From Limnohabitans sp. Rim8 (GTDB lineage Bacteria; Pseudomonadota; Gammaproteobacteria; Burkholderiales; Burkholderiaceae_C), in the NCBI RefSeq assembly GCF_945897465.1, contig NZ_CAMDFK010000005.1: a DNA stretch of 64,000 nucleotides. The stretch is one strand, 5' to 3'. Every line of letters starts with the position of its first letter. Within the stretch, counting starts at the first letter, position 1. A program made the translations under genes and the position numbers. A model generated the notes under the pieces. That model saw only the letters and a list, made by a program, of their open reading frames with translations. It made no database searches and was not told where the DNA came from. Of the stretch, positions 4,240 to 50,939 are shown piece after piece.

Positions 4240-4255
4240 GTCTTTGGCTCCCTGA

Positions 4256-6105: not shown

Positions 6106-6161
6106 CGCGAGCGCAGCGTGGCGATCCAGATCTGGACGGCCGCACATGGCTCACACTGAGC

Positions 6162-6536: not shown

Positions 6537-6554
6537 GGTCTTTTATCCCAGCGT

Positions 6555-9428: not shown

Positions 9429-9481
9429 GTGAGGGGGTGGCATTCGCCACCGCTTGCAATGAAATTTGCAGAGTCCGGCTT

Positions 9482-14534: not shown

Positions 14535-14671
14535 GCCAGGCAAACAGTCGGATTCCACGTTTCTTTATGCCCGATATGACATATACAACCAACTAAAAAA
14601 TCGTTCCCATGTCTGAAGGGCTTGGCCACAATCGCGCCATCCTCTGTTCATCACCTTCAGGAACGACCCTC

Positions 14672-18636: not shown

Positions 18637-19476
18637 TCAACGGCAGTGCATCACCACAGGCGCCGGCCCTACTGGCGCTGCGTCGTGCAATGCCACAGGC
18701 AACACCTCGCCACGCAACTCGTGTTCGAACTGGTCGTACAAATGCGCCAGGCGCTCAGGGCTGACCTGTTCAGAGGGCAAATCAAACACCAGCTGCCCAT
18801 CGCGCAGGCCAATGGTGCGCGGAAAGTGCGCCAGCGCCATGTCCACTTGGTGCAGCGTGGCCACGAGCGTGACCTGGCGCTCGGCGGCCAAGTTGACCAA
18901 GGCCGACATGGCCATGCGGGCCCGCATCGGGTCAAGCGCTGACAAGGGTTCGTCGATCAGCCAGAGGCTGGCCGGTGCCAGCAGGGCGCGGGCCAGGCCC
19001 ACACGTTGGCGCTCTCCGCCCGACAGGCGGTCCACTCGGTCGAACAATTTGTCGCCCAGGTCAAAGTGCACCAGCGCTTCGTAAGCGGCCGGGATGTCGG
19101 TGGGGTAGAACAGCGAGCGCAAGCTGGACCACAAACCCATGCTGGGCAAACGCCCGGCCAGCACCGAGGTCACCACACGTTGGCGCGGCGGCAGCGGCGG
19201 CACCTGCGGGGCCAGAAACAACTGCCCGCGTGTGCGGCGCAAGGCGCGTGCAGACAGTGTCCAAGGGTTCACGCCCGCCAATTGCAGCGTGCCTTGGGTG
19301 GGCGGCTGGGCACAGGCCAGTACCTGCAGCAAGGTCGTCTTGCCTGCGCCTGATGGGCCAATGATCGCTACCTGCTCGCCTGCGGTCAGGCGCAGGTTCA
19401 GCCCCCGCAAAGCTGCGGGCGCACTGGGCAAGGCTGCCGGATGCCTGGCCTCCAGGCCCAAAAGCTCGATGTTCAC
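18637..19476 (-). CDS. phnC: PhnC-family ABC transporter ATP-binding protein
   Basis: Walker A GPSGAGKTT, signature LSGGERQRV and Walker B LWLIDEPLSALD. GTG start at 19476. Confidence 0.85.
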   Translation of the reverse strand: MNIELLGLEARHPAALPSAPAALRGLNLRLTAGEQVAIIGPSGAGKTTLLQVLACAQPPTQGTLQLAGVNPWTLSARALRRTRGQLFLAPQVPPLPPRQRVVTSVLAGRLPSMGLWSSLRSLFYPTDIPAAYEALVHFDLGDKLFDRVDRLSGGERQRVGLARALLAPASLWLIDEPLSALDPMRARMAMSALVNLAAERQVTLVATLHQVDMALAHFPRTIGLRDGQLVFDLPSEQVSPERLAHLYDQFEHELRGEVLPVALHDAAPVGPAPVVMHCR

Positions 19477-19494: not shown

Positions 19495-20364
19495 TTAGAG
19501 CAAGCCCGCGCTGCGGGCGGCCGACTCCAGGCCCTTGTAGTTCTCGGGCGTGGTAGCGATGTAGCGGCTCGAGCGGTTGAGCTTCAAGATCTCGGCGTGC
19601 TCGGGGTTGGCGGGGTTCAGGGCCAGCAAGGCGGCTTTGATTTTTTCGCGCAAGTCGGCAGGCATGTCGGCGTGCACCGACCAGTTGTAGTTGAAGTAAG
19701 GGGGCGTGGTGTAGAACACGTTCACAGCCTGGGTGTCGACCTTGTTTTCGGCCACGAACTTTTTCCACACGGTGATGTCGAGCGCTGCGGCATCGACCTT
19801 GCCACTGACCACCGAAGCGATGGTGGCGTCGTGAGCGCCGCTGTAGGCGATGCGCTTGAAGTCTTTTTCAGGCTCGATCTTGGCTTGCAGCAAAAAGCTG
19901 CGCGGCATCAGATGGCCAGAGGTGCTGCTTTGTGAGCCAAAAGAGACTTGCTTGCCCTTCATGTCGGCCAGCGTCTTGATGCCAGAGTTGGTCTTGGCGA
20001 TGAACACCGACTGGAAACGCGTGTCTTCTTCGCGCTGGGCCAATGGCACGATCTTGCCGCCCGAGCGGATATTCGCCTGCACAAAGGTGAAGCCGCCAAA
20101 CCAGACCACATCGACCTTCTTGTTCACCAATGACTCCACAGCAGCGGGGTAATCGGTCACGGGCGTGAACAGCACTTTCATACCCAGTTGCTTTTCCAGG
20201 TAAGTGGCCAAAGGCGTGAACTTGCGCACCTGCTCGGTGGCCGCTTCCTCGGGGATGGTGGTCACGCGCAACGTGGTTTGGGCTTGGGCCGAGCTCATGG
20301 CCGACAAAGCCAGCAAACCTGCACAGACCGAGGACAAAAATTTGGAAATAAAAGCGTGATGCAT
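19495..20364 (-). CDS. PhnD-family periplasmic substrate-binding protein (subfamily annotated in databases as putative selenate/phosphonate binding)
   Basis: Signal peptide ending SSAQA|QTT. PhnD-like TLRVTTIPEE, and YPAAVESLVNKKVDVVWFGGFT. Confidence 0.85.
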   Translation of the reverse strand: MHHAFISKFLSSVCAGLLALSAMSSAQAQTTLRVTTIPEEAATEQVRKFTPLATYLEKQLGMKVLFTPVTDYPAAVESLVNKKVDVVWFGGFTFVQANIRSGGKIVPLAQREEDTRFQSVFIAKTNSGIKTLADMKGKQVSFGSQSSTSGHLMPRSFLLQAKIEPEKDFKRIAYSGAHDATIASVVSGKVDAAALDITVWKKFVAENKVDTQAVNVFYTTPPYFNYNWSVHADMPADLREKIKAALLALNPANPEHAEILKLNRSSRYIATTPENYKGLESAARSAGLL

Positions 20365-20477: not shown

Positions 20478-21446
20478 ATGACCACCCCCCAATTCATCCA
20501 GCTGTACCAGCACAACGCCGCCGCCGTGGCGCAAGAACTCTTGCAGGGCCTGAGCGCCCCGCAGGCCTTCACCTCACCCAAATACCTGTACGACGCGCTG
20601 GGCTCGCGCTTGTTCGAGGCCATCACCGAGCTGCCAGAGTACGACCTGACCCGCACCGAGGCGCAACTCATGCGCCTGCACAGTGCGGACATGGCCCAGC
20701 ACCTGCCCAAAGGTGCTTGCTGGATCGACCTGGGCGCGGGCAACTGCGAAAAAGCCGGACGGCTGCTGGGCCCCCTGCAAGCGGGGCGTTATGTGGCGGT
20801 GGACATTTCGGTGGACTTTGTGCGCGAAGCCCTGGACAGCCTGCAGCGCCAGCACCCGGACTTGCCCATGACGGGCCTGGGCACCGATTTCTCGGGGGGC
20901 CTGGATTTGCCAGACGCCTTGAAACTGGACCCGGCGCAGCCACGCGTCTTGTTTTACCCGGGCTCGAGCATCGGTAATTTCACACCCGATCAGGCGTTAG
21001 GCTTTTTGCAAAGCCTGCACCGCGCTTGTGGCACAGCCCAAGGCAGCGGCTTGCTGATCGGGGTGGATTTGGTCAAAGACGCGGCCGAACTGGAAGCGGC
21101 CTATGACGACGCCCTGGGCGTGACCGCTGCCTTTGACCTGAACCTGCTGCTGCACATCAACCGCTTGGTGGGCAGCAACTTTGTGGTGCGCGACTGGCGG
21201 CACTTGTCGCGCTTCAACGCCGAGCGCTCGCGCGTGGAAATGCACCTGCAGGCGCGCCACGCGGTGCGCGTGCAGTGGCCAGGCGGCGAGCGGCTTTTTG
21301 CCAAAGGCGAGACCATCCACACAGAAAACGCCTGTAAGTGGACGGTGCCGAACTTCGAAGCCTTGCTGCACGCAGCAGGCTTTGCCCAGACCCGCGCCTG
21401 GACCGATCCGGCCCAGCGCTTTGCGGTGTTCTGGGCCGTGGCCTGA
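20478..21446 (+). CDS. egtD: L-histidine N-alpha-methyltransferase (hercynine synthase)
   Basis: It aligns along its full length, from memory, with mycobacterial EgtD. Matching segments include PKYLYDALGSRLFEAITELPEYDLTRTEAQ, DLGAGNCEK, GSSIGNFTP, AYDDALGVTAAFDLNLL and TENACKW. Confidence 0.85.
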   Translation: MTTPQFIQLYQHNAAAVAQELLQGLSAPQAFTSPKYLYDALGSRLFEAITELPEYDLTRTEAQLMRLHSADMAQHLPKGACWIDLGAGNCEKAGRLLGPLQAGRYVAVDISVDFVREALDSLQRQHPDLPMTGLGTDFSGGLDLPDALKLDPAQPRVLFYPGSSIGNFTPDQALGFLQSLHRACGTAQGSGLLIGVDLVKDAAELEAAYDDALGVTAAFDLNLLLHINRLVGSNFVVRDWRHLSRFNAERSRVEMHLQARHAVRVQWPGGERLFAKGETIHTENACKWTVPNFEALLHAAGFAQTRAWTDPAQRFAVFWAVA

Positions 21447-21545
21447 GCTTGTCGCGCATTTGATTCGATCTCTTTAACCTCGTGTCCATAATGAATTTGG
21501 CCCAGCGCTCTTGCTGCGTGCAAATTCAATGACCTGGAGACTCGC

Positions 21546-22313
21546 ATGTTGAACGATCTGAAAGACAAAGTGGTTTTGATCACCGGCTCGAGCACCGGTA
21601 TCGGTGCTGCAGCGGCAGTGGCTTTTGGCCGACTTGGCGCACGCGTGGCCGTGCACTACAACAGCAGCCAAGGCCCGGGTGAAGAAGTGCTCAAAGCTGT
21701 CAAGGACACGGGTGCTCAGGCCGTCTTGCTGCAAGGCAACGTGCTTGAAACCGCCCAATGCCACCGCCTGGTCGAAGAAACTGTCAAGGCGTTCGGACGC
21801 ATAGACATCTTGATCAACAACGCGGGCGCTTTGGTTCAACGGGTACCCATTGAAGAGATCACCGATGAGCTGTTTGACAATGTGGTGCATCTGAACGTGC
21901 GCTCCGCCATGATGTGCACCGCCGCTGCAGTGGCCGCCATGCGTCGGCAGGGCCAAGGCGGCGTCATCATCAATGTGACCTCGGTCGCGGCCAGGCATGG
22001 GGGCGGTACAGGTGCTTCTCTGTATGCCGGCTCCAAAGGCTTTGTCTCCACCATGACCAAAGGCTTGGCCAAGGAACTTGTCAAAGACAAGATCCGGGTC
22101 AACGCGATTGCCCCCGGCGTGATCACCACCCCATTTCACGAGCGTTTTTCGACGCCCCAAATGTTGGAAGGCTTTAGGGCCACGATCCCCATGAACCGCT
22201 TGGGCACTGCCGACGAATGTGCAGGCGCATTCCTGTACCTGGCTTCTGAACAGATGTCGGGCTATGTGACCGGCCAGGTCATCGACATCAACGGTGGGCA
22301 GTACATGCCCTGA
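21546..22313 (+). CDS. SDR family oxidoreductase
   Basis: TGSSTGIG cofactor motif, NNAG, and the catalytic YAGSK (YxxxK). Confidence 0.85.
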   Translation: MLNDLKDKVVLITGSSTGIGAAAAVAFGRLGARVAVHYNSSQGPGEEVLKAVKDTGAQAVLLQGNVLETAQCHRLVEETVKAFGRIDILINNAGALVQRVPIEEITDELFDNVVHLNVRSAMMCTAAAVAAMRRQGQGGVIINVTSVAARHGGGTGASLYAGSKGFVSTMTKGLAKELVKDKIRVNAIAPGVITTPFHERFSTPQMLEGFRATIPMNRLGTADECAGAFLYLASEQMSGYVTGQVIDINGGQYMP

Positions 22314-22316
22314 GTG

Positions 22317-23165
22317 TCAGTGCATGGAGGGGTAAAGCACGGTCACGCGCCACAAGGTGCGTGGCCGGGTCAGATCGATCAGGGGTGCGCTGTGCAGCAG
22401 CAAAGCGTTGTCCCAGACAATCACATCACCGTTTTCGTAGTGGTTGGTGTGGCAGTATTTTTCTTGTGTGGCATGTGCGGCCAATTCGCGCAACAGGTCC
22501 AGTGCCTCGTCATCGGGCAGGCCTTCGATGCCAAATGAACTCCCGCTGACCGCATACAAAGCCAGCTGACCTGTGAAGGGGTGTGGCTTGACCAGCGGGT
22601 GACGAACCCAGTTGACCCTTTGGGCCTGCTCGGCATTGAGCACAGACGCCACGCTTCGGGATTGTTTGTCCAGATCATCGCGGTTGCCATAGTGGTGCTT
22701 GACCACGAGGTCTTTGATTTTGGCTTTCATGCCCGAGGGTAAGTCGGCATAGGCCTTGGCTTGGTTGGCAAAGGTGGTGCCGTTGGGTGCGGGCGGAACG
22801 TCTTGCGCATGCAAGATGGTGCATCGCGCCACGTTTTCGAGATAGGAATAGTCGGTATGAAAATACGTGCCCGCATCCACCAGCCCCGTGGGCTTGCCGT
22901 GCTTGAACACGTTAGAGAGGATCAGGATGTTCGCATCCTCCGAGTGATGGAAGGTGTCAATGACATGCGGCGAAGGACGCCCCCATTGCCGGGCAAAACT
23001 CACCATTTGGAATGCCGTGAGTGACTGGTTCTTGATCACCACAAAACCGTGACGATGCAAGGCGTCGGCCAAGCCTTGGCGTTGCTCGGCATCCATGGCT
23101 TGCGACAGGTCCAGGCCCTCGATGCAGGCGCCAAGAACATCGCTCAAAGGTTTGGCCAAGAGCAT
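22317..23165 (-). CDS. TauD/TfdA family Fe(II)/2-oxoglutarate dioxygenase
   Basis: HxD iron motif in GTYFHTDYSY. The C-terminal half DVIVWDN..LLH is typical of TauD-like enzymes. Confidence 0.8.
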   Translation of the reverse strand: MLLAKPLSDVLGACIEGLDLSQAMDAEQRQGLADALHRHGFVVIKNQSLTAFQMVSFARQWGRPSPHVIDTFHHSEDANILILSNVFKHGKPTGLVDAGTYFHTDYSYLENVARCTILHAQDVPPAPNGTTFANQAKAYADLPSGMKAKIKDLVVKHHYGNRDDLDKQSRSVASVLNAEQAQRVNWVRHPLVKPHPFTGQLALYAVSGSSFGIEGLPDDEALDLLRELAAHATQEKYCHTNHYENGDVIVWDNALLLHSAPLIDLTRPRTLWRVTVLYPSMH

Positions 23166-23180
23166 GGGAATTCGCTTTCC

Positions 23181-24500
23181 TCAGTTGATCATTTCAGGAG
23201 AAAAAATGCGAGGAAGAAAGAGGGCAATTTCGGGGAACACAATGACTGCAAAAAGCACCAGCAGCATGGGCACCACCATGATCATGGTGTCCTTGATCGC
23301 GAACCTCAGCGGCACCTTGGCCACCGCGCAAGAAATCATCAGGCACATGCCATAGGGCGGGGTGACCAGGCCAAAAGCCAAAGCCAGAATGCCCACAATG
23401 GCAAAGTGAACGGGGTGCATGCCCACCGATTGCGCCAAAGGTTGCAAGGTGGTGCCCACGATGATGATGGCCGGGATGGCATCCAGAAAGCAGCCCACAA
23501 TCAAGAAGGCCGCCGCGATGAACAAGCCCACACCAATCACACCCATGCCCCAGGTCTGCACATTCGACAACAAGGCCTTCGGGATTTGGTAATAAGCCAG
23601 CAACCAGCCGAACACCGAAGCGGTTCCAACACAAAACAAAGCAACCGCCGAGAGTTTTCCCGTGTCCAATACGGCGGCCATGAATTGTTTGAAGCCCATC
23701 TCGCGGTAAAAGAACAGAGACAAAACAGCTGCATACAAAACAGCCGCCGCCGCCGATTCGGTGGCTGTGAACCAACCCAGCAAAATACCGCCCACAATGA
23801 TCACAGGTGTCAACATCGCTGGGATGGCCACACCGGCTGACTTGACAATTTCAAGGATATTGGCCCGTGGATATACCGGATAGTTGCGCTTGACAGAATA
23901 AGCATGGACGGTGGCCATCTGTGCCAAGCACAACAGCACCCCCGGAACAATGCCTGCCAAATACATGGCGCCAATCGAAGTGGAAATCACCCCACCCCAA
24001 ACCACCATCAAAATGGACGGGGGGATGATCACGGCCAGGACCGACGACACAGCCGTGACAGCAATCGAAAAAGACAGGTCATAACCCTCCTTGACCTGGG
24101 CCTCAATGAACAGCTTGCCCTGCCCTGCAGCGTCGGCGCTCGCCGAACCGGAAATTCCGGCAAAAAATACCGACAACAAGACGTTGACCTGCGCCAGCCC
24201 TCCGGGAAAATGCCCGACCAAGGCTCGGGACAAACGCATCATCCTGGATGTGATGCCGCCACCATTCATCAAGTTGGCGGTCAACAAGAAAAATGGAACG
24301 GCCAGCAAAATGAAAGAGTTGTAGGTCTTGAAGGTCTCATTGAACAGGACCATCGGTGACAGCCTGGGCTCCAACAACAAAACCGGCAACGATGCCAGGC
24401 CCAGGGCAAAGGCAACCGGAACCCGTATGGCCAGAAGAAGGAAAAACCCCCCAAAGAGGATCAGTGCCGCCATTCCAGGCGAAAACATGACAGAGCTCAA
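23181..24500 (-). CDS. dctM: TRAP transporter large permease subunit
   Basis: 439-aa polytopic protein with DctM-type sequence throughout. It overlaps dctQ by 4 nt. Confidence 0.9.
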   Translation of the reverse strand: MSSVMFSPGMAALILFGGFFLLLAIRVPVAFALGLASLPVLLLEPRLSPMVLFNETFKTYNSFILLAVPFFLLTANLMNGGGITSRMMRLSRALVGHFPGGLAQVNVLLSVFFAGISGSASADAAGQGKLFIEAQVKEGYDLSFSIAVTAVSSVLAVIIPPSILMVVWGGVISTSIGAMYLAGIVPGVLLCLAQMATVHAYSVKRNYPVYPRANILEIVKSAGVAIPAMLTPVIIVGGILLGWFTATESAAAAVLYAAVLSLFFYREMGFKQFMAAVLDTGKLSAVALFCVGTASVFGWLLAYYQIPKALLSNVQTWGMGVIGVGLFIAAAFLIVGCFLDAIPAIIIVGTTLQPLAQSVGMHPVHFAIVGILALAFGLVTPPYGMCLMISCAVAKVPLRFAIKDTMIMVVPMLLVLFAVIVFPEIALFLPRIFSPEMIN

Positions 24501-24994
24501 ACCGCTGACTCCTGATTCATACTTTCATGATGGGCCGACGGGCTGAACATTTGGTTGAGCAAGAAAACCATCCAAAGAAAGCCCGAAATAGGCCAAGCGA
24601 TGAAAATCCACCACATGGGCATGTCAGCCAGCTCTGAGGTCTGGTTCCACCCAAACTGGGTGAATTCGATGCCCCAGTAAAAAATCACAGCCGAAAAAAT
24701 CAACATGAAAACTTGGCAGATGAACAACAGGCGTTTGTTGGTCTTGGCCGACAGTTGGGGCAGGAAATCGACGTCAAAATGCATTTTTTCACGCACGCCC
24801 AAGGTGGCACCCAACATGATGAGCCAGATGAAGAAAAAGCGACTCATTTCTTCAGTCCACATGTAGCGTGGAATGAAGTCGGTGTACCTGGAAAAAATCT
24901 GCAAACTCACAGGTACAAGCAAGAGCAAAACCGTGAAGATCAGAAGAAAAGACAGCAAAGCATCGATCAGGAACAACAACTTTTTCATGAGCAA
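24497..24994 (-). CDS. dctQ: TRAP transporter small permease subunit
   Basis: 165 aa with 4 hydrophobic helices. Positioned between dctP and dctM. Confidence 0.85.
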   Translation of the reverse strand: MLMKKLLFLIDALLSFLLIFTVLLLLVPVSLQIFSRYTDFIPRYMWTEEMSRFFFIWLIMLGATLGVREKMHFDVDFLPQLSAKTNKRLLFICQVFMLIFSAVIFYWGIEFTQFGWNQTSELADMPMWWIFIAWPISGFLWMVFLLNQMFSPSAHHESMNQESAV

Positions 24995-25049
24995 CTTTAG
25001 GGGTGAGCATGCAGGGCGATGGCCTTTCGGCCACCGCCCGATCGGCCAA

Positions 25050-26039
25050 TCACTTCAGTGCATTGATCTTGGCGTAGATCGCATCCGCACCCACCTCTTT
25101 GGCATATGCGGCCATGACGGGGTCCACCAGTTTTTGCATTTCGGCTCGCTGGGCAAAGGGCACCTGCTTGAGCTTGCCTTCTTTGGCGTATTTGTCGAGC
25201 TTGGCTTGGTCCTCCGACGACTCGATCTGACGACCAAACGCACCCGCCTCCTTGCCCGCCTTCACGATGGCTGCTTGCAAGTCAGCAGGCAGCTTCTTCA
25301 GGGTCTTGACCGAAAAGCACAAAGGGCGAATGGTGATGGCATGGCGTGTCATCAAAATGTTGGGGGCCACTTCATAAAACTTCATGGCTTCCACACCAGC
25401 GGCTTCGTTTTCGCCGGCTTGGATCACACCGTTTTGAATCGCGTTGTAAACCTCGTTGTAGGCAATGACCGTTGGGGTCATGCCCACCGCACCAAAGGTT
25501 CGGCTCCAGATGGGTGCGCCTTGCACACGCACCTTCAGGTTTTTCAGATCAGCCAAATTGCCAGCAGACTTGTTGGCAAAAATATTGCGTACACCGCCGC
25601 CGGCATAACCAATCAGTTTGACTTCGGCTTTTTGCTCTACCTCGTCTGCAATCGGCTTGAGTATGTCTTGATCCAACACCTTATTCCAGTGACTCAGATC
25701 CCGGAACAAAAAAGGTGCATCAATGAAGGGGGCTGCTTTGGAAAAGGTGGACATGTGGGCTGGCGACACAATCGCAAAGTCCACCGCTTTGCCCTGGTTC
25801 ATGTAGGCAAAGTAATCTTTTTCCAAACCCAGTTCGCTGTTTTTGTGCAAAACAAAGTTGACCGGTTTGCCATAGTATTTTTTGACGAGCTCTTCAAACT
25901 TGACCATGGTCTTGGTGAAGGCATGGTCGTCACCAAATTGTGATGCGCCATGGAGCGTGATGGCTGCCTGTTGGGCATGCGCGCTCAAAGCCATGACCGA
26001 AGAGAGGACTACGCCCAGCAAAGGTTTCAAAATTTTCAT
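25050..26039 (-). CDS. dctP: TRAP transporter substrate-binding protein
   Basis: The start MKILKPLLGVVLSSVMALSAHA|QQ is at 26039, with an AGGAGA RBS. DctP-family body. The track ORF start at 26312 is over-extended. Confidence 0.85.
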   Translation of the reverse strand: MKILKPLLGVVLSSVMALSAHAQQAAITLHGASQFGDDHAFTKTMVKFEELVKKYYGKPVNFVLHKNSELGLEKDYFAYMNQGKAVDFAIVSPAHMSTFSKAAPFIDAPFLFRDLSHWNKVLDQDILKPIADEVEQKAEVKLIGYAGGGVRNIFANKSAGNLADLKNLKVRVQGAPIWSRTFGAVGMTPTVIAYNEVYNAIQNGVIQAGENEAAGVEAMKFYEVAPNILMTRHAITIRPLCFSVKTLKKLPADLQAAIVKAGKEAGAFGRQIESSEDQAKLDKYAKEGKLKQVPFAQRAEMQKLVDPVMAAYAKEVGADAIYAKINALK

Positions 26040-26301
26040 GTTTATGTCTCCTGAATTGATCGGAACAACAACCTGCTCACATTGTTGTTTTTTTAATGTA
26101 GGCCAAAGCCCCCCCGACAGTCTTGGGGAAAACCATGAGTCACCTCCACATCTGTCTCCAACGTGTCCGCGTGCACTGGCAAGTGACTTGGCCTCAGTGA
26201 TAACTTGACCAAGAAGCCGAGCGCAAGCGAAGCCGCTCATGTCTGCGCCTTTGGGATGAACTGGACGCAGTACTTTTTCATTCATCACACGAAAGAAGTT
26301 C

Positions 26302-27198
26302 ATGAAACACATTGGTTTTATAGGTGCCTCGGGCTTGATGGGTCATGGCATCGCCAAAAATTTGCTGGCCAAAGGCTTTCAGGTGTCGTTGACCGCCCAT
26401 TCGAGACGCGAACCTCTGCAAGACCTTCTGATGCATGGCGCCAAGCTGGTGGAACGCCACGCCGACCTGTCTGTCTGTGATGCGGTCATCATTTGTGTCA
26501 CCGGCTCTCCCCAGGTCGAGGCTGCGCTCGAGGGGCCAAGCGGCCTGTTGAGTCAAGCCCGTCCGGGGCTCGTGGTGGTGGATGCGTCCACCAGCGAACC
26601 CGATTCCACCCGCCGCCTGGCAGCCCGCTGCCAAGCGGTGGGCATGACCCTGGTTGATGCCCCATTGGCACGCACGCCGGTCGAAGCCGAGGCGGGCAAG
26701 CTCAACACCATGGTGGGCGCATCGCCCGAGGTCTTCACACGCTTGGAGCCCGTACTCCAGGCATATTGCGAAAACATCTTTCATGTCGGCGAAACGGGCG
26801 CTGCACACGTCATCAAGTTGTTGAACAACTTCCTGGGTCAAGCCATCACCACGGCCGCTGCTGAAGCTTTTGCCGTCGGCGCCAAAGCCGGCATTGATGT
26901 GGCCCAATTGGTCAGGGTGGTGTCGGCCGGTGCCGTCAATTCAGGCCTGTTCCAGGCCATGGCCAAAACCTTAGAGGGCGACTACACCGGACTCAAGTTC
27001 GAGCTGAACAATGCCTCCAAAGACTTGCGCTACTACGTGCATCTGACCGAAAACGTGAAAGCACCTTCATGGGTTGGCACCAGCGTGCACCAGAGTCTGG
27101 TGACAGCCTGCGCTTTGGGTTACGGCCAGGAGATGGTGCCCTCGCTGGTCAAGGCGCAAGCACAAATCAACCAGGTCAACATCGAGCAGGGCCGCTGA
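26302..27198 (+). CDS. NAD(P)-dependent beta-hydroxyacid dehydrogenase (3-hydroxyisobutyrate dehydrogenase family)
   Basis: N-terminal IGFIGASGLMGHGIAKNL Rossmann motif and the family core DAPLARTP..A..G.L. Confidence 0.85.
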   Translation: MKHIGFIGASGLMGHGIAKNLLAKGFQVSLTAHSRREPLQDLLMHGAKLVERHADLSVCDAVIICVTGSPQVEAALEGPSGLLSQARPGLVVVDASTSEPDSTRRLAARCQAVGMTLVDAPLARTPVEAEAGKLNTMVGASPEVFTRLEPVLQAYCENIFHVGETGAAHVIKLLNNFLGQAITTAAAEAFAVGAKAGIDVAQLVRVVSAGAVNSGLFQAMAKTLEGDYTGLKFELNNASKDLRYYVHLTENVKAPSWVGTSVHQSLVTACALGYGQEMVPSLVKAQAQINQVNIEQGR

Positions 27199-28211
27199 TG
27201 GCGCCCCGCCTGGGTATGGCCCTGGTGGGCTTGGGTGCGGCCACCCCACCGCATCTGCGCAGCCTGCAAGACCTGAGCGAACGCATCGACCTGCGTTATG
27301 CGGTCACGCGCCACCCCCACCCTGATCGCATCCGTCCTTACACAGGCCCAGTTCGCTGGGTCAGTGATCTGGACGAGGCGCTGAACGACCCACAGGTCCA
27401 AGCGGTCATTGTGGCCACACCACCGTCCACCCACCTGGACATCTGTCGGCGTTGCTTCGCTACCGGTAAACATGTCTTGCTCGAAAAACCGCTGGAACTG
27501 GACCTGGAAAGGTCAAAGCAACTGGCATCTCTGGCCCGGCAAAGCGGTCGGCACTGGGGTGTGGTCATGCAGCACCGGTTTCGTGAAGCATCGCTGGTTT
27601 TGCAGGATGTGGTCGACAAAGGGCGCTTGGGTGAAATCCAGGCCGCATCGGTGCGCGTGCCATGGTGGCGATCGCAAGCCTATTACAAAGAACTGGGCAG
27701 AGGCACCTTGGCACGTGATGGTGGCGGGGTGTTACTGACCCAAGCCATCCACACCCTGAACCTGTTTCAGTCGCTGGTCGGGGTGAAGTCGGTCACGGCC
27801 TCGGTGGTGCGGCAAACCCGTTTGCACCAAATGGAAACCGAGGACCATGTCAGCGCGCTGCTGGTTTTGGGCAATGGTGCGCCCGGTGACCTCATGGCGA
27901 CGACCGCCATGTACCCCGGCTTCCCAGAAACGATTGAAATCATCGGCACACAGGGCAGCGCACGGCTGAGTGGAGCAGATCTGCAGGTGCACTTTTTGCA
28001 AGGGGATCCTTTGACCGTGCGCGGTGAAGGCGGTACAGGCAGCGGTGCCAATATGATGGATTTTTCACACGAACCCCACCGGGATTTGTTAACAGATTTC
28101 ATCGACGCAATCGTCCACCATCGCGCTCCCAGAGTCACCGTTGATGATGCGCTGACAACCCACCTGCTGATCGATGAACTGCTGCGCAAGGGACGGATGT
28201 CGACGGACTGA
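27198..28211 (+). CDS. Gfo/Idh/MocA family oxidoreductase
   Basis: MALVGLGAATPPH Rossmann start and the EKPL motif (HVLLEKPLE). The ATG shares one nt with the upstream TGA (TGATG). Confidence 0.8.
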   Translation: MAPRLGMALVGLGAATPPHLRSLQDLSERIDLRYAVTRHPHPDRIRPYTGPVRWVSDLDEALNDPQVQAVIVATPPSTHLDICRRCFATGKHVLLEKPLELDLERSKQLASLARQSGRHWGVVMQHRFREASLVLQDVVDKGRLGEIQAASVRVPWWRSQAYYKELGRGTLARDGGGVLLTQAIHTLNLFQSLVGVKSVTASVVRQTRLHQMETEDHVSALLVLGNGAPGDLMATTAMYPGFPETIEIIGTQGSARLSGADLQVHFLQGDPLTVRGEGGTGSGANMMDFSHEPHRDLLTDFIDAIVHHRAPRVTVDDALTTHLLIDELLRKGRMSTD

Positions 28212-28214
28212 ACA

Positions 28215-29498
28215 TCAAACCTTCACAGACCGGAAGCCTGCAAAAATATCGCGCCGCTCGGGCACAAAAAAATTGCGGTAACGCACATCCACCACATGGG
28301 CCGAGGTGGCAGCGCAGGCCCCGCGCAGCACACGGTGGCCATGCCACCAAGGCGCTGAATAGTCGCGGTACGGGTGCACCTCAAAGCCCGGGTAAGGTGC
28401 AAAATCACTGGCCGTCCACTCCCACACCTGACCCCACAAAAAACCTGGCTGCTGCGCGGCGCATTCCCATTCGGCTTCGGTGGGCAGACGCCGCCCTGCC
28501 CATTGGCACCAAGCCTGGGCATCGTGGGCATTCAGGTGCACCGCCGGGGCCTGCAGGTCGAGCAGCTGCCACTGGCCAAATTGCTGTGCTTGCCAAACGC
28601 CGTCAAGCCAGCGCACGTGGGGCGGCAGCGCATGGCCGGTGGCTTGCACAAAAGGCAAGTAACGCGCCCAGCTCACGGCTGCAGCATCGATCTCGAACGC
28701 ACCCAAGGCCTGCGGATGGGCCTGACGCTCGTTGTCAAAGGCAAACCCTGGCCCTGAGTAGCCCAGAGTGTTAACCTGTGCAGGAACATGGACGGACCCT
28801 GTCAGCCCCAAAGGCGCTTGTAACCCACGCGCATCACCTGATGCGGGTTCACGCCAGCACAAGGCCGGTGGCAAGGCCAGCCCCAGCGCTTGGGCCATGT
28901 AGACCGAGGCTTCGTTGTGCATGTCTTCGTGTTGCAAGACCAGTCGCCAAAAATAAATCGCCTCGTCTGAGGGCGGCCGCCCGCCTGCGTGCAGAGCCTC
29001 AAGGGCTTGTAAGTGGCCCAAGCTGCGCTGCAGCACCTGCGCCAAATAGGCCTGCGTCCCGGCCAGATCGGGCAAAGGCAAGGCCCAGCGGCTGTCATGC
29101 GCCACCTCGCTGGAGTTGTAGAGCGCATCGGCATCGGGCAGCCAAGAGTCGTCAAAAGCTTCGCCGGTGCTGGCACTGCGTGTGCCCCAATGGCGCTGCC
29201 GATTGCGCACCGTCCACCACTCCTGAAACCAGGCGATATGCCCCCATTCCCACAACGGGGGGTTCATGCCCGGCGAGGGCGGCACCGACAGATCGGGCAT
29301 GGCATTTTGCCAAGCCTGCATCAGGCCCAGCGTGCGGGCGCGGGTGCGTTGCAGGGCCTGGGCCAAAACCGCAGGGCCGGCAGTGCGCACAGCGCTGTGC
29401 ACGGGCCCCTGACAGCCCACAAAATAACGGTCAAATAAACGCCCCCCTGTTGCGCCTTGGAAAACCTGCCTTGACCCCACCGTGGTACTGCCATTCAT
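28215..29498 (-). CDS. senA: EgtB-like DinB/FGE-sulfatase-fold enzyme, selenoneine synthase-like
   Basis: The N-terminal DinB-like domain carries the three-His iron site pattern (WEWGHIAWF and LQHEDMHNE). The C-terminal FGE-sulfatase/EgtB-type domain shows GQVWEWTASDF.PYPGF and RVLRGACAATS. The start is uncertain: ATG at 29498 (MNGSTTV), with alternatives at 29513 or downstream GTGs. The senA label comes from context: selD, the glycosyltransferase and egtD. Confidence 0.7.
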   Translation of the reverse strand: MNGSTTVGSRQVFQGATGGRLFDRYFVGCQGPVHSAVRTAGPAVLAQALQRTRARTLGLMQAWQNAMPDLSVPPSPGMNPPLWEWGHIAWFQEWWTVRNRQRHWGTRSASTGEAFDDSWLPDADALYNSSEVAHDSRWALPLPDLAGTQAYLAQVLQRSLGHLQALEALHAGGRPPSDEAIYFWRLVLQHEDMHNEASVYMAQALGLALPPALCWREPASGDARGLQAPLGLTGSVHVPAQVNTLGYSGPGFAFDNERQAHPQALGAFEIDAAAVSWARYLPFVQATGHALPPHVRWLDGVWQAQQFGQWQLLDLQAPAVHLNAHDAQAWCQWAGRRLPTEAEWECAAQQPGFLWGQVWEWTASDFAPYPGFEVHPYRDYSAPWWHGHRVLRGACAATSAHVVDVRYRNFFVPERRDIFAGFRSVKV

Positions 29499-29511
29499 GT
29501 ATAAACCGCCC

Positions 29512-30486
29512 ATGCAAAAACTTCGTGTGGTGATTGTCAGCCCCGCCTTGGCTGATGCCAACAACGGCAACTGGCAAACTGCGCGACGCTGGCAACAGTT
29601 GTTGTCTGCGCATTCTGCCCGCATCGTGCGCCAGTGGCCCGACACGCAGGCAGATGATGACAACGTGATGCTGGCCCTGCACGCCCGCCGCTCGGCCGAC
29701 TCGGTGCAGGCCTGGCACGACCGGCACGGCCCGCGCGGCTTGGGCGTGGTGCTGACCGGCACCGACCTGTACCGCGACATCGCACACGACCCGCAGGCGC
29801 AGCGCTCGTTGGCTTTGGCGCACTCCTTGGTGGTCTTGCAAGGTCTGGGCGTGCAAAGTCTGCCCCCTGAGCACCAAGCCAAAGCCCGTGTGGTATTTCA
29901 GTCCACCGGCACGCGCAAGACTTTGCCCAAAACCGCACGCCATTTGCGCGTGGTGATGGTGGGCCATTTGCGCGAAGAAAAAGACCCGCTCACCCTGATG
30001 GCTGCCGCGCGACGGTTACCGCCAGACGCAGATGTGTTCATTGACCACATCGGCGCCGCACTCGACCCCGCCCTGGGCCAGGCCGCACAAGCCACCCAAG
30101 CGCAGTGTCCATATTACCGCTGGTTGGGGTCGGTGCCGCATGCGCAAACCCTGCAACGCATCCAGCGTGCGCACCTGTTGGTGCACTGCAGCCGCATGGA
30201 AGGCGGCGCCCATGTGCTGATGGAAGCGATTTGCAGCGGCACGCCGGTGCTGGCCTCGCGCATCGACGGCAATGTGGGACTGCTGGGCGAGGATTACGCG
30301 GGCTATTTTGAGCCGGGTGACGCGCAGGCCCTGGCCCATTTGTTACAAGCTTGCCGCTCACCGCAAAACGGCCCCAGCCTGATGGCACACTTGAGGGATC
30401 TGTGCGCCTTGCGTGCACCCTTGTTTGAACCTCAGGCCGAACGTGCCGCCTTGCTCCGCTGGGTGCAAGACCTCTGGACAATTTGA
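29512..30486 (+). CDS. senB: GT-B glycosyltransferase of the SelD-associated (TIGR04348-like) family, selenosugar synthase-like
   Basis: The N-terminus KLRVVIVSPALADANNGNWQTARRW is, as I recall, the hallmark of this family. The C-terminal part is a GT1-type domain (E..G.H.LMEAICSGTPVLAS). Its stop overlaps the selD-fusion ATG (TGATG). Confidence 0.7.
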   Translation: MQKLRVVIVSPALADANNGNWQTARRWQQLLSAHSARIVRQWPDTQADDDNVMLALHARRSADSVQAWHDRHGPRGLGVVLTGTDLYRDIAHDPQAQRSLALAHSLVVLQGLGVQSLPPEHQAKARVVFQSTGTRKTLPKTARHLRVVMVGHLREEKDPLTLMAAARRLPPDADVFIDHIGAALDPALGQAAQATQAQCPYYRWLGSVPHAQTLQRIQRAHLLVHCSRMEGGAHVLMEAICSGTPVLASRIDGNVGLLGEDYAGYFEPGDAQALAHLLQACRSPQNGPSLMAHLRDLCALRAPLFEPQAERAALLRWVQDLWTI

Positions 30487-32852
30487 TGAAACCATCTGCT
30501 CAACCTGTGCTGCGCGACCTGGTGCTGGTCGGAGGTGGCCACAGCCATGTGGGCGTGCTGCGCATGTTCGCCATGAAGCCCGAGCCGGGCGTGCGCATCA
30601 CACTGATCTGCACCGACATCGACACCCCCTACTCGGGCATGCTGCCCGGTTACATCGCGGGCCATTACAGCTTTGACGAGGTGCACATCGACTTGGGCCG
30701 CCTGTGCGCTTTTGTTGGTGCGCGGCTGTACCACGCTGCCGTGGTCGGCATCGACCGCCAAAATCAGAAGGTCATCTGCCAGAACCGACCGTCCGTGGCC
30801 TACGACCTGTTGTCCATCAACATCGGCTCGACACCCCAAGTGCGCCATGTCGAGGGAGCCCAATCGCTGGCTGTGCCGGTCAAGCCGATTGCACAATTCA
30901 ACCAACGCTGGTTGGCCCTGATGGACAAAGCCCGCCAGTGGCCCGTGCACCGGGGCCGCATGACGATTGCGGTGGTGGGCGCGGGCGCAGGTGGTGTAGA
31001 GCTGGTGCTGTCCATGCAATACCGCTTGCGCCACGAACTCAAGGCCTTGGGCCGCAGCCCTGAAGTCTTGAAATTCGTGTTGCTGACTTCGGGCGACACC
31101 ATTTTGCCCACCCACAACCCGGGTGTGCGAAAGCGCTTTGCCCAAGTGCTGCAAGAGCGTAACGTCGAGGTGCACACCTCGGCCGAAGTGATCCAGGTCT
31201 CGCCCGGTTGCCTGCACACGCGTGACGGGCGCACTTTCGATGCAGACGAAACCATGTGGGTGACCCAAGCCGGTGGCCCCAGTTGGCTGCAAAGCACCGG
31301 CCTGGCACTGGACAAGCAGGGCTGCATCCTGGTGCACCCGCAGCTGCAAACCCTGAACGATCCGCTGGTGTTTGCAGCGGGTGACATTGCTTCGTTTGTG
31401 GACCGCCCGCTGGAAAAAGCGGGCGTGTTTGCCGTGCGCATGGCCAAACCCTTGGCCGAGAATCTGCGCCGCAGCCTGCGCGGCCAAAGTCTGCTGGCCT
31501 ACGACCCGCAACGCCATTGGCTGGCCCTCATTTCCACGGGCAACCGATTCGCTGTGGCCTCACGCGGCTCACTGGGCTTTGACGGGGCCTGGGTCTGGCG
31601 CTGGAAGGACCGCATTGACCGGGAATTCATGCGCCGCTTCACCGAATTCCCGGCCATGCCCGGGGCAGTCAGCCCTGCCCAAACCGGGGCCCATGTGCGC
31701 GAAGCCGTCCAGGCCATGGGCCAGCTGCTCAAAGACATCCAAGCCCAAGGCAAGGGGCATACCACCCAGCTGAACCTGACTTCAGAGGAGTCGCTGCAGG
31801 CCATCTCGGCCATTGCGATGCGCTGCGGGGGCTGCGGAGCGAAAGTAGGCGCTAACATCCTGTCGCGCGCACTCGGCAGCTTGCAACCCGTCGAGCGCCC
31901 GGACGTGCTGATCGGCCTGCATTCGCCAGACGACGCGGCCGTGGTGCGTGTGCCACCAGGCATGGCCGTGGTGCAGACGGTGGATTTTTTCCGGGCCTTC
32001 ATCGACGACCCCTATGTGTTTGGCAAAGTGGCCGCCAACCACGCACTGGGCGATATCTTTGCCATGGGGGCCGAACCCCAAACCGCCACCGCCGTGGTCA
32101 CCGTGCCGCCGGGCCTAGAGAGCAAGGTGGAAGACCTGCTGACCCAAATGATGGGCGGTGCAATCGAGGTGCTGAACGCCGCAGGCTGCGCCTTGGTGGG
32201 CGGGCACACGGGCGAGGGTGCCGAGCTGGCCCTGGGATTTGCCATCAACGGGCTGATCGACGAGAAGATGGACAGCGTGATGCGCAAGGGCGGCATGCAG
32301 CCCGGTGATGTGCTGCTGCTGACCAAACCGATTGGCACCGGCACCCTGTTTGCCGCGCATGCGCGCTACGCCGCCAAGGGCCGCTGGATCGATGCAGCGC
32401 TCAAATCGATGGTGCTGTCCAACCAATCAGGCGCTGAAATTTTGCGCAATCACGGCGCCACCGCCTGCACCGACCTGACCGGCTTTGGCCTGCTGGGCCA
32501 CTTAGTGGAGATGACCCGGCCGTCCGGCGTGGACGCAGAACTGACCATGAGCACCCTGCCCCTGCTGGATGGCGCGGTGGACTGCGTGCAAGCGGGCATC
32601 GTCAGCTCTTTGCAGCCCGCCAATGTGCGCCTGCGTCGCGCCCTGCGCAACGCCGACGAGTTCGTGGGCGACTCCCGCTACCCCCTGCTGTTCGACCCGC
32701 AAACCGCAGGCGGTCTGTTGGCCAGTGTGCCGGCAGCGCAAGCGGCCGCTTGCGTGCAAGCGCTCAAGGCTGCGGGGTACCCCCACACCGCCATCATTGG
32801 CCGCATCACCGCGCAAAGCGAGGCCATCGAACCTGTGCTGCTGAAAACCTGA
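30486..32852 (+). CDS. senC: bifunctional FAD/NAD(P)H pyridine-nucleotide-disulfide oxidoreductase / selenide,water dikinase
   Basis: The N-terminal ~370 aa carry LVLVGGGHSHV and IAVVGAGAGGVE dinucleotide folds and FAAGDIA. The C-terminal ~370 aa is SelD, with RCGGCGAKVG (Cys/Lys loop), DDAAVV, VQTVDFF, HALGDIFAMGAEP and GGHTGEG. There is no in-frame TGA. Confidence 0.85.
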   Translation: MKPSAQPVLRDLVLVGGGHSHVGVLRMFAMKPEPGVRITLICTDIDTPYSGMLPGYIAGHYSFDEVHIDLGRLCAFVGARLYHAAVVGIDRQNQKVICQNRPSVAYDLLSINIGSTPQVRHVEGAQSLAVPVKPIAQFNQRWLALMDKARQWPVHRGRMTIAVVGAGAGGVELVLSMQYRLRHELKALGRSPEVLKFVLLTSGDTILPTHNPGVRKRFAQVLQERNVEVHTSAEVIQVSPGCLHTRDGRTFDADETMWVTQAGGPSWLQSTGLALDKQGCILVHPQLQTLNDPLVFAAGDIASFVDRPLEKAGVFAVRMAKPLAENLRRSLRGQSLLAYDPQRHWLALISTGNRFAVASRGSLGFDGAWVWRWKDRIDREFMRRFTEFPAMPGAVSPAQTGAHVREAVQAMGQLLKDIQAQGKGHTTQLNLTSEESLQAISAIAMRCGGCGAKVGANILSRALGSLQPVERPDVLIGLHSPDDAAVVRVPPGMAVVQTVDFFRAFIDDPYVFGKVAANHALGDIFAMGAEPQTATAVVTVPPGLESKVEDLLTQMMGGAIEVLNAAGCALVGGHTGEGAELALGFAINGLIDEKMDSVMRKGGMQPGDVLLLTKPIGTGTLFAAHARYAAKGRWIDAALKSMVLSNQSGAEILRNHGATACTDLTGFGLLGHLVEMTRPSGVDAELTMSTLPLLDGAVDCVQAGIVSSLQPANVRLRRALRNADEFVGDSRYPLLFDPQTAGGLLASVPAAQAAACVQALKAAGYPHTAIIGRITAQSEAIEPVLLKT

Positions 32853-32875
32853 ACGCCTCCGAGATCAGGAACCCT

Positions 32876-33544
32876 ATGCCTACCGAACAACTCATGCTCA
32901 ACGCTGACCTGAGCCAGCGCTGCATCATCCACAGCCCCTCGCTCGACTGGGTGGACTCACCCGCCTCGGGCGTGTCGCGCCGCATGCTCGAGCGCGACGG
33001 CGGCGAAGTGGCACGCGCCACGTCCATCGTGCGTTATGCGCCAGGCTCGGCCTTTGCCAGCCACACCCACGGCGGGGGCGAAGAAATTTTGGTGCTCGAA
33101 GGCACGCTGCACGACGAGCATGGGGTTTATGGCCCCGGCACTTACATCAAGAACCCAGTGGGCAGCTCGCACGCGCCATCCTCGCCCGATGGATGCACTT
33201 TGTTTGTGAAGCTGCGCCATTTGGACGCACGTGACGACGAACGCGTGGTCATCGACACACGTCGCAGCGAATGGCGACAAGGCATGGTCGAGGGCTTGAA
33301 GGTCTTGCCACTGAACACCTTCGAGACCCAAAACACCGCCCTGGTGCGCTGGGCACCTCAAACGTTTTTCAACCCGCACCGGCATTGGGGTGGCGAAGAA
33401 ATCTTGGTGGTCGACGGCGTGTTCTCGGACGAGCACGGTGACTACCCCGCAGGCAGCTGGCTGCGCAGCCCCCACATGAGCCAGCACCAACCGTTCAGCC
33501 GCGAAGGCTGCTTGATTCTGGTGAAAACCGGGCACTTGATTTGA
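32876..33544 (+). CDS. bicupin protein (ChrR C-terminal-like cupin family)
   Basis: Two cupin metal motifs, HTHGGGEEILVLEG and HRHWGGEEILVVDG. AGGA RBS. Lies 23 nt after the selD-fusion stop. Confidence 0.7.
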   Translation: MPTEQLMLNADLSQRCIIHSPSLDWVDSPASGVSRRMLERDGGEVARATSIVRYAPGSAFASHTHGGGEEILVLEGTLHDEHGVYGPGTYIKNPVGSSHAPSSPDGCTLFVKLRHLDARDDERVVIDTRRSEWRQGMVEGLKVLPLNTFETQNTALVRWAPQTFFNPHRHWGGEEILVVDGVFSDEHGDYPAGSWLRSPHMSQHQPFSREGCLILVKTGHLI

Positions 33545-33546
33545 AC

Positions 33547-34257
33547 ATGACATCACCCACACCCCCCATTCGCGCCGTCGTCTTTGATGCCTACGGCACG
33601 CTGTTCGATGTGTACTCCATCGGCGCTTTGGCCGAAACACTCTACCCTGGCCAGGGCGCGGCACTGTCGGTGCTGTGGCGCGACAAGCAGATCGAGTACA
33701 CACGCCTGATCTCGCTGAGTGACCCCAGCCCCCAAGGCAGTCGCCACTACCAATCGTTTTGGGACATCACGCGCGCGTCGCTGCGTTATGCGCTGGCGCG
33801 TTTGGGCTTGGTGCACAGCGTGGCCAATGAAGACGCGCTGATGGCTCAATACGCCGAGCTCACGGCCTTCCCGGAAAACCTGGGCGTGCTGCAAGCCTTG
33901 CGCCAACGCGGCGTGGCGACAGCGATTTTGTCCAACGGCAGCCCCGAGATGCTGCAGTCGGCCGTGCACAGTGCAGGCATGAGCGACTTGCTGGATGCAG
34001 TTTTGTCGGTGGACAGCGTGCGCCAGTTCAAAACCACGCCCACCAGCTACCAACTGGTACAAGACCACCTTGGCTTGGCACCCGCGGATGTGTTGTTTGT
34101 CTCGAGCAACGCCTGGGATGCGCTGGGCGCTACTTGGTTTGGCTTCACCACCCTGTGGATCAACCGCCAGGGTCAACCGCCAGAGGCCATGGGTCCGGCG
34201 CCTCACCACACGGGCCGCGACCTGAGCGAAGTGCTGAAGGTGTTGGGCCTGCACTGA
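33547..34257 (+). CDS. haloacid dehalogenase type II (HAD superfamily)
   Basis: Nucleophile motif AVVFDAYGTLFDV, then WRDKQIEYTRL, SNG and SSNAWD, all characteristic of L-2-haloacid dehalogenases. It starts 2 nt after the cupin stop. Confidence 0.8.
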   Translation: MTSPTPPIRAVVFDAYGTLFDVYSIGALAETLYPGQGAALSVLWRDKQIEYTRLISLSDPSPQGSRHYQSFWDITRASLRYALARLGLVHSVANEDALMAQYAELTAFPENLGVLQALRQRGVATAILSNGSPEMLQSAVHSAGMSDLLDAVLSVDSVRQFKTTPTSYQLVQDHLGLAPADVLFVSSNAWDALGATWFGFTTLWINRQGQPPEAMGPAPHHTGRDLSEVLKVLGLH

Positions 34258-50597: not shown

Positions 50598-50601
50598 GTG
50601 C

Positions 50602-50937
50602 TCAGGGGATGCTCTTGGGCAAGACCGTCAATGTTTGTCGCAAGCTGCCTTTGACGCCCCGGTCATCGATCCATTCGACATGCATTTCGGCCGTTTGTTC
50701 TGCTCGCACAAAAAATTCAAACAAGGGGTTGGCTGAAATCCCCGACGAAGGCTCTGCACGGAACACCTCTTGCTGGCCCAAAGTACAGGTCAAAGATCGG
50801 ATCACGTTGCGCGGCACCAATTTGCCCAACAGGTCTTGCAAGTAACCTGTGTCCATGGGGTGTTGCACCAGCAGACGAACTTTGACCAGATCCCCCGTCA
50901 AGACGCGTTCAGGCCATTGGATGCGTGCAAATGCCAT
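50602..50937 (-). CDS. soxZ: thiosulfate-oxidation carrier complex protein SoxZ
   Basis: 111 aa with VKVRLLVQHPMDTG...ANP.F.F, characteristic of SoxZ. It starts 2 nt after the soxY stop. Confidence 0.85.
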   Translation of the reverse strand: MAFARIQWPERVLTGDLVKVRLLVQHPMDTGYLQDLLGKLVPRNVIRSLTCTLGQQEVFRAEPSSGISANPLFEFFVRAEQTAEMHVEWIDDRGVKGSLRQTLTVLPKSIP

Positions 50938-50939
50938 GA

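Follow-up and report, generated by a model that had tools for sequence, protein, structure and literature searches.

The region around positions 28215–32852 of a 64-kb stretch of DNA from the freshwater bacterium Limnohabitans sp. Rim8 (the whole stretch is called the window below) very probably carries a sen cluster, i.e. genes for the biosynthesis of selenoneine, a selenium antioxidant, which includes egtD and a selenate-type importer in addition to the core genes senA, senB and senC and which would function as its orthologues do in Variovorax paradoxus. The sen pathway was published in 2022 by Kayrouz and Seyedsayamdost. A first-pass annotation, made from the letters of the window alone, had arrived at this pathway, and its assignment is borne out by equivalog hidden Markov models (HMMs), by all published diagnostic residues, by the degree of identity to the V. 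paradoxus enzymes and by the names of identical RefSeq proteins. About 58 open reading frames (ORFs) of the window were scanned with NCBIfam models, to which curated cut-offs were applied. The HMM E-values (1e-134 for SenA, 5e-133 for SenB, 1e-149 for the N-terminal domain of SenC and 4e-89 for its SelD domain) exclude chance matches. The gene starts used here are the PGAP starts, and the proteins agree in both length and sequence with RefSeq entries of Limnohabitans sp. Rim8 (Table 1). A SenB alignment was also run against species-representative genomes, which gave at least 556 relatives; 80 loci, designated by L-numbers, were retrieved, and their neighbouring genes were mapped by tblastn.

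SenA is encoded within a longer ORF (28215–29882, minus strand), and its sequence begins with MNGSTT at position 29498. The first-pass annotation had described a 427-residue EgtB-like enzyme with a three-His site and an FGE-sulfatase domain, which is what the Pfam domains (DinB_2 and FGE-sulfatase) and the histidine motifs WEWGH and LQHEDMH confirm. The HMM comparison that it had proposed separates the enzyme from EgtB: the score exceeds the cut-off of the SenA model NF041186 (449.6 versus 420 bits) and falls short of that of the EgtB model TIGR03440 (214 versus 360 bits), while the models for SenB and SelD are passed as well. The closest solved structure is that of V. paradoxus SenA (8K5I/8RYZ; E=1.6e-108; 56% identity). 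The residues of the window proteins were mapped against the positions fixed by crystallography or mutagenesis in V. paradoxus SenA and SenB. In SenA, the iron triad H87/H190/H194 (H71/H167/H171 in V. paradoxus) and the catalytic tyrosine Y377 (Y363) are kept (PMC11237966), as are the contacts to selenosugar and hercynine, N79/E84/R137/N409/R415. Furthermore, both substitutions that distinguish SenA from EgtB are present, with His134 in place of EgtB R87 and Phe411 in place of EgtB D416 (PMC11237966; 10.1101/2022.04.13.486033). By analogy, this SenA would make selenoneine from a selenosugar and hercynine.

The same evidence bears on the possibility that the EgtB-like protein is a sulfur enzyme, which uses cysteine or gamma-Glu-Cys to give ergothioneine intermediates, with SelD serving selenocysteine (Sec) or selenouridine systems encoded elsewhere. 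The DinB + FGE-sulfatase fold is indeed shared with EgtB, Ndh-SelD fusions such as the one described below have been reported in genomes with Sec machinery (PMC4561486), and the scan for selA, selB and selU was confined to the 64-kb window. Nevertheless, the HMM cut-offs and the pocket residues led to the rejection of an EgtB identity, the EgtB thiol-binding pair being replaced as in all SenA; neither egtA, egtC or egtE nor a second EgtB homologue is found in the window; and senA directly adjoins senB–senC, a linkage that is kept in 52 loci. This explanation is exceedingly unlikely.

OvsA, the enzyme of ovoselenol (a 5-selenohistidine derivative) synthesis, is the second-best solved relative of SenA (E=1e-46), and its partners, too, are of the SenB/SenC type (PMC11030361), so that the cluster might make ovoselenol instead of selenoneine. 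The published composite motif discriminates between the two enzymes: xNEH--HRHxHYYN(F/Y)(F/Y)R describes SenA, whereas the OvsA motif ends in YMQAYR (PMC11030361). The window protein reads NEH--HRHDHYYNFFR, which includes the hercynine-type YNF and led to the rejection of an OvsA identity. In addition, the hercynine-supplying egtD is linked to the cluster, no OvsM-type methyltransferase was seen in the NCBIfam results for the window, and reports of OvsA come almost exclusively from aquatic gammaproteobacteria. The probability of an ovoselenol cluster is negligible. EgtB and OvsA are alike to the window SenA in the DinB + FGE fold, the three-His iron site and the catalytic Tyr, but the substrate pocket has the SenA pattern and not that of EgtB (R87/D416) or OvsA (M/Q/A).

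The product of senB had been recognized in the first-pass annotation as a 324-residue GT-B glycosyltransferase of the SelD-associated family, and this description holds. The protein, the N-terminus of which reads MQKLRVVIVSPALADANNGNWQTARRW, is of the GT-B/GT4 type (Pfam Glycos_transf_1) and scores 443 bits against TIGR04348 (cut-off 300). Its closest solved structure is V. paradoxus SenB (8JJQ/8FBX; E=8e-126; 65.5% identity), with which it shares N20, T23, E230, the catalytic K157 and the EGGAHV segment (N20/T23/E231 and Lys158 in V. paradoxus; PMC10891094). The 13-nucleotide (nt) gap that separates the divergent start codons of senA and senB recurs in 12 Limnohabitans loci. With such a gap, the promoters and ribosome-binding regions of both genes must overlap the coding sequence of the opposite gene. 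A single sigma-70-like site for senA lies inside senB (29561–29533), a count not above that in shuffled sequences, and no clear Shine-Dalgarno sequence was seen before senB.

The steps of the pathway have been demonstrated with the V. paradoxus enzymes (10.1101/2022.04.13.486033; PMC10891094; PMC11237966; PMC11030361), and it is because of this biochemistry on orthologues that they can be proposed for the window. The SelD domain of SenC would convert selenide and ATP to selenophosphate. SenB would transfer the sugar of a UDP-sugar, preferably UDP-GlcNAc, to selenophosphate, forming a C–Se glycosidic bond, and would then hydrolyse the Se–P bond via Lys157 to release a 1-seleno-sugar. EgtD would supply hercynine by trimethylation of histidine. 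In an Fe(II)/O2-dependent reaction, SenA would join the selenosugar to hercynine at C2, giving a selenoxide, and elimination of the sugar as 2-acetamidoglucal would yield selenoneine.

SenC is a two-domain protein with the Pfam composition Pyr_redox_2 + AIRS + AIRS_C. The coupling of its translation to that of the glycosyltransferase, seen already in the first-pass annotation, takes the form of a 1-nt overlap between the senB TGA and the senC ATG (TTGATG). The C-terminal half passes the SelD model TIGR00476 (298.9 bits, cut-off 125), and the closest solved structure to it is that of E. coli SelD (3U0O; E=1e-46). Its loop CGGCGAK aligns with GAGCGCK of the E. coli enzyme, the aligned Cys and Lys being retained, and contains a CxxC motif (C447-G-G-C450, nt 31824–31835). 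Membership in the TIGR04369 class (“fusion_not_SelD”) was considered and rejected, as the protein scores 470 bits, short of the 700 required, and passes the model for true SelD. The fused SelD is 90% identical to that of Limnohabitans sp. 2KL-27. The classical consumers of selenophosphate (selA, selB, tRNA-Sec, selU/ybbB) are missing from the window in the NCBIfam, tRNA and Rfam scans, in agreement with the first-pass annotation; the selB model matches only CysN, through its GTPase domain (67 bits, cut-off 242), and the window contains no tRNA genes and no match to an Rfam family. The independence from selenoproteins put forward in the first-pass annotation is shown for the 64-kb window only.

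The N-terminal half of SenC is an Ndh-like oxidoreductase domain that passes the model TIGR03169, “Nterm_to_SelD” (498.5 bits, cut-off 310). A search with this domain through 1.84 billion representatives gave 2,181 clusters at E<=1e-30, the best 150 of which were used; 99 of these have the size of fusions and 26 that of free-standing proteins, and conservation was read from 125 diverse representatives. The closest solved relatives belong to NDH-2, the type II NADH:quinone oxidoreductases (E ~6e-20; Caldalkalibacillus thermarum 4NWZ/6BDO). Both groups have the FAD and NAD(P)H dinucleotide-binding motifs, which are intact in SenC, but they differ in the quinone motif, in the membrane-anchor helices and in the Glu of the NAD(P)H-binding fold, which is Thr/Ser in the Ndh-like domain. 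The quinone clamp of NDH-2 is AQxAxQ (Q317, Q321; PMC6167311); the window domain reads G313-V-F-A-V-R318 at this position. The C-terminal membrane anchor of NDH-2 is absent in SenC, with the linker and SelD standing in its place, and on these two counts NDH-2 membership failed. The motifs GGGH[SA]H, PYSGM and GV[FY]AVR are essentially invariant in the 125 representatives. Two cysteines, C42 and C98, were considered as redox-active residues given their invariance in 40 close homologues, and were dropped: C42 is Ser/Thr and C98 is Leu/Phe in many of the 125 representatives.

The CxxC motif follows the architecture of SenC. SelD architecture could be scored in 71 of the 80 loci: SelD is fused in 47 and in four more at contig ends (51/71), and stands alone in 20. 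All 48 fused SenC of sen loci carry the loop RCGGCGAKV, and all 19 stand-alone SenC with a readable loop carry GGGCGCKI (the twentieth, L076, is a 243-residue fragment). Among the wider set of Ndh-like relatives, the SelD loop can be located in 64 fused representatives, 62 of which have CxxC. In 35 of the 99 fused-size relatives (P0195–P0344 set), no SelD Cys/Lys loop is recognizable by pattern; these might belong to the TIGR04369 class, or the pattern might have missed them.

Ndh-SelD fusions with CxxC were described in 2008 and account for ~40% of Cys-type SelDs in ocean metagenomes (PMC2398784), and Ndh-SelD is the commonest SelD fusion (PMC4561486). The first-pass annotation had singled out the oxidoreductase fusion as a departure from the known cluster. 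With respect to the stand-alone SenC of Variovorax this stands, but the fusion is not unusual, being the majority form and long described. Judging by its motifs, the Ndh-like domain is presumably a soluble flavoprotein that uses NAD(P)H and has an acceptor other than a quinone. Most plausibly, though by inference only, it would deliver reducing equivalents to selenium at or near the SelD CxxC loop: NAD(P)H would reduce an oxidized selenium species or a CxxC-bound selenium adduct to selenide at the SelD site. One possible route would be the reduction of a Cys-S-Se-S-Cys adduct derived from selenite, with selenide being formed and trapped in the active site of SelD. The combined proposal, in which the domain is not a quinone reductase and acts as a dedicated NAD(P)H-dependent selenium reductase working with the CxxC loop, is a tentative and rather doubtful one. 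If it is true, clusters with fused SenC and the importer represent a self-contained route from selenium oxyanion to selenoneine, and the fused/CxxC and stand-alone/CGC forms of SenC are two mechanistically different feeds of the pathway.

The functional unit extends beyond positions 28215–32852 and adds egtD and a four-gene importer (16.9–21.4 kb). EgtD passes TIGR03438 (342.7 bits, cut-off 290.9), and the ABC importer diverges from its gene. The two permease ORFs of the importer (16918–17928 and 17748–18608) overlap as listed, and the true start of the downstream permease gene is therefore probably later than listed. In ~35 sen loci from various genera, the permease genes are conserved neighbours of those for the binding protein and the ATPase, and the paper in which sen was discovered already notes egtD and a selenate transporter in some of the clusters. 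The importer probably supplies a selenium oxyanion, its “selenate” name being a database annotation.

Between egtD and senA lies a 6.8-kb block of seven unrelated genes, and the first-pass annotation had taken egtD for an orphan. The related loci contradict this view. Homology to insert-free Limnohabitans loci ends at the egtD stop codon (21446) and restarts at that of senA (~28217–28224), and the block is common only to the window and seven other loci (L002, L008, L009, L012, L020, L021 and L040). Since the outgroups do not have it, the block is read as an insertion, and egtD as a displaced member of the cluster. In the insert-free Limnohabitans L004, L006, L010, L015 and L016, as well as in outgroup genera, egtD abuts senA. 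The importer, egtD, senA, senB and senC form one contiguous block in the same five loci and in related genomes of Ramlibacter, Polaromonas and others. The GC content is 0.52–0.56 over 22–26 kb and 0.59 over 26–28 kb, with flanks at 0.60–0.63. Neither transposase or integrase genes nor obvious junction repeats were found at the insert.

Table 1. Features of the sen region and its surroundings in the window, with the names of identical RefSeq proteins
Feature	Position	Strand	Models and remarks	Identical RefSeq protein
Rhodanese-like sulfurtransferase	14609–15622		Below NCBIfam cut-off	
YedE/FdhT-like membrane protein	15623–16705		Below NCBIfam cut-off	
Two PhnE-like ABC permeases, selenate-type transporter	16918–18608	-	TIGR01097, 262.6 bits (cut-off 216.7) and 200.1 bits (below)	
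ABC transporter ATPase, PhnC-like	18637–19476	-	TIGR02315, 186 bits, under cut-off 266; syntenic with the binding protein in sen loci	
Putative selenate ABC transporter periplasmic binding protein	19495–20364	-	TIGR04553, 355.2 bits (cut-off 250)	WP_295501921.1, “putative selenate ABC transporter substrate-binding protein”
egtD, L-histidine N-alpha-methyltransferase, hercynine supply	20478–21446	+	TIGR03438	WP_295501922.1, “L-histidine N(alpha)-methyltransferase”
Inserted block, not part of the pathway	21447–28214		SDR, TauD-like dioxygenase, TRAP DctMQP, HIBADH-like and Gfo/Idh/MocA dehydrogenases	
senA, selenoneine synthase (non-haem iron, C–Se bond-forming)	28215–29498	-	427 residues; NF041186	WP_295501929.1, “selenoneine synthase SenA”
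Spacer separating the start codons of the divergent senA and senB	29499–29511		13 nt	
senB, selenosugar synthase (Se-glycosyltransferase)	29512–30486	+	324 residues; TIGR04348	WP_295501930.1, “selenoneine biosynthesis selenosugar synthase SenB”
senC, whole gene	30486–32852	+	788 residues; Pyr_redox_2 + AIRS + AIRS_C	WP_295501931.1, “selenide, water dikinase SelD”
senC, N-terminal Ndh-like FAD/NAD(P)H oxidoreductase domain	30486–31643	+	Residues 1–386; TIGR03169	
senC, C-terminal SelD domain, selenophosphate synthetase	31821–32852	+	Residues 446–788; TIGR00476	
Cupin (ChrR-like C-terminal domain) and type II HAD hydrolase	32873–34257	+	Directly downstream of senC	

The order and orientation importer <- -> egtD <- senA -> senB -> senC is kept across Limnohabitans, Ramlibacter, Polaromonas, Variovorax and others. 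The divergent senA, which had also been listed as a departure from the known cluster, is no such thing: senA is divergent from and directly upstream of senB in all 52 senA-containing loci and never co-directional with it (it is absent in 27). In Variovorax beijingensis (L071), the SenB and SenA of which are 96% and 93% identical to the crystallized V. paradoxus proteins, senA is divergent, SelD stands alone and the ABC transporter is present. The reference system thus has this orientation as well, and the fusion is the sole departure from it.

About 12 Limnohabitans-type loci have senB and the fused senC and are missing senA, egtD and the importer, and Limnohabitans planktonicus II-D5 and strain G3-2 retain only N-terminal senA remnants of 79–91 residues. 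In these senA-less Limnohabitans, the selenoneine half is deleted and senB–senC persists. Unrelated cassettes have, moreover, been taken up at three different junctions of sen loci. Taken together, these facts would fit a cluster in decay also in the window, one in which selenophosphate or a selenosugar made by SenB–SenC is the main output and selenoneine has been lost or become marginal through the separation of egtD and the importer. The window genes senA and egtD and the four transporter genes are, however, full-length with all catalytic residues intact, and seven other genomes have the insert-bearing layout with their genes intact, at 63–94% protein identity, which argues for purifying selection. 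Limnohabitans sp. Hippo3 and 2KL-17 are cultured strains of the window's layout. A decaying remnant is very unlikely, and a working sen cluster remains the preferred reading.

Several points weigh against this reading or parts of it. The product, the sugar donor and the activity are extrapolated from enzymes that are 56–66% identical. In SenB, Glu156 replaces Val157 of the V. paradoxus enzyme, a contact of the N-acetyl group and the sole change among the mapped residues; judging from this position, the preferred sugar could differ, and Val157 substitutions in V. paradoxus SenB lowered the activity and did not abolish it (PMC10891094). Through the insertion, egtD and the importer are no longer coupled to senABC, and co-regulation of the two parts is unproven. 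Because several Limnohabitans keep senB–senC without senA, egtD and the importer, SenB and SenC may also have a role independent of selenoneine. As to SenC, the Ndh-like domain has no cysteine conserved across its family, its role is a matter of pure inference, and the function of Ndh-SelD fusions was left open in the literature as “not fully clear” (PMC2398784).

Loci of other compositions were observed among the relatives. In several senA-less Limnohabitans genomes, including the complete one of DCL3, genes for MFS, rhodanese and YedE-like proteins lie directly upstream of senB and the fused senC; senA-less loci include L013, L019, L024 and L027 (~8600–10000), L011 (5720–5992) and L005 (9754–9981). 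In 11 loci from Curvibacter, Hylemonella, Rhodoferax, Polaromonas and other metagenome-assembled genomes (MAGs), egtD is immediately upstream of and co-directional with senB (L036, L049, L052, L053, L057, L064, L072, L074, L076, L077 and L081). A stand-alone selD follows senB in seven of them and a fused one in L074; in L057, L072 and L077 the contig stops or no selD was detected. Within 10 kb on either side, tblastn (E<=1e-3) gave no SenA/EgtB homologue for these 11 loci, and the flanks of the Curvibacter delicatus locus are unrelated genes. Either senA is located elsewhere in these genomes or another enzyme forms the C–Se bond. Some Limnohabitans-type MAGs carry an RND efflux pump (AcrB + CusB-like + OEP) between senA and senB, and some have, between senB and senC, a block of 4.4 kb that includes a radical SAM/DUF3641 protein (L025, 3726–10000 and 10964–15305; L014, 3769–10000; L018, 10958–15344). 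With the 6.8-kb block of the window, insertions have been accepted at three different junctions of the sen locus.

Downstream of senC in the window, the cupin gene begins after 21 nt and the HAD hydrolase gene overlaps its end by 4 nt. This spacing suggests that the two genes may be co-transcribed with senBC; their link to the selenoneine pathway is unproven. A cupin gene follows senC only in 14 Limnohabitans-type loci, and an HAD homologue recurs in nine loci, four of which have a stand-alone senC in other genera. The idea of a conserved fourth gene downstream of senC was dropped in view of this distribution. On the other side, the rhodanese-like and YedE/FdhT-like genes adjoin the selenate-type transporter upstream. 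They were rejected as cluster members, being below cut-off and not beside the transporter in L006 and L010; their neighbourhood varies within Limnohabitans and is not seen outside the genus, and a role in selenium handling is unproven. An assimilatory sulfate-reduction cluster (2923–8360), composed of cysN, cysD, a cysH-type APS/PAPS reductase and a NirA-like sulfite reductase, lies 9–14 kb from the importer and could reduce selenate non-specifically. At 49740–54066, SoxA and SoxY-like sulfur-oxidation genes stand beside that of a 743-residue XdhA-like molybdenum hydroxylase large subunit, which is below all NCBIfam cut-offs.

The cluster is already known, as identical proteins carry the SenA and SenB names in RefSeq, and its layout is typical of the family; 1,514 SenA sequences had been catalogued by 2024 (PMC11030361). 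Its occurrence implies that Limnohabitans (Comamonadaceae, represented here mostly by lake and pond metagenomes) encodes selenoneine synthesis, which some sister species have lost, and this bears on how selenium is cycled and on where the selenoneine of aquatic food webs originates. The cluster also provides a testable hypothesis on the long-known and uncharacterized Ndh-SelD fusion, the commonest form of SenC among the 80 closest loci. Tests would be worthwhile of what the Ndh-like domain does and of the division of SenC into fused/CxxC and stand-alone/CGC forms.

In the literature consulted, we found no statement that links the Ndh-SelD fusion to selenoneine clusters. The fusions in the literature (Zhang et al. 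2008; Mariotti et al. 2015) likewise combine an NADH-dehydrogenase-like flavoprotein domain with a Cys-type SelD that has a CxxC loop, but they were tied to the use of Sec and selenouridine, whereas the window's fusion is the SenC of a selenoneine cluster. The insert-free clusters of Limnohabitans, Ramlibacter and Polaromonas (e.g. L010 from Limnohabitans sp. 15K, L037 and L054) have the same genes, orientations and fused SenC. They differ from the window in that the stop codons of egtD and senA are 10–60 bp apart, where the window has 6.8 kb of sugar-acid and TRAP-transport genes. The sen cluster of V. paradoxus DSM 30034 (Kayrouz & Seyedsayamdost 2022) shares with the window the three enzymes with all their defined catalytic and specificity residues, and clusters of the Variovorax type also share the divergence of senA from senB, the position of senC after senB and the selenate-type ABC transporter beside senA. 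Unlike the window, the Variovorax type has no egtD in the cluster and a stand-alone SelD of ~350 residues with the E. coli-like loop GGGCGCKI, the size of V. paradoxus SenC being deduced from the proxies L071 and L063 and from residue numbering up to 316 (PMC11929427). The window has instead an Ndh-SelD fusion with CxxC and a linked egtD displaced by the insertion.

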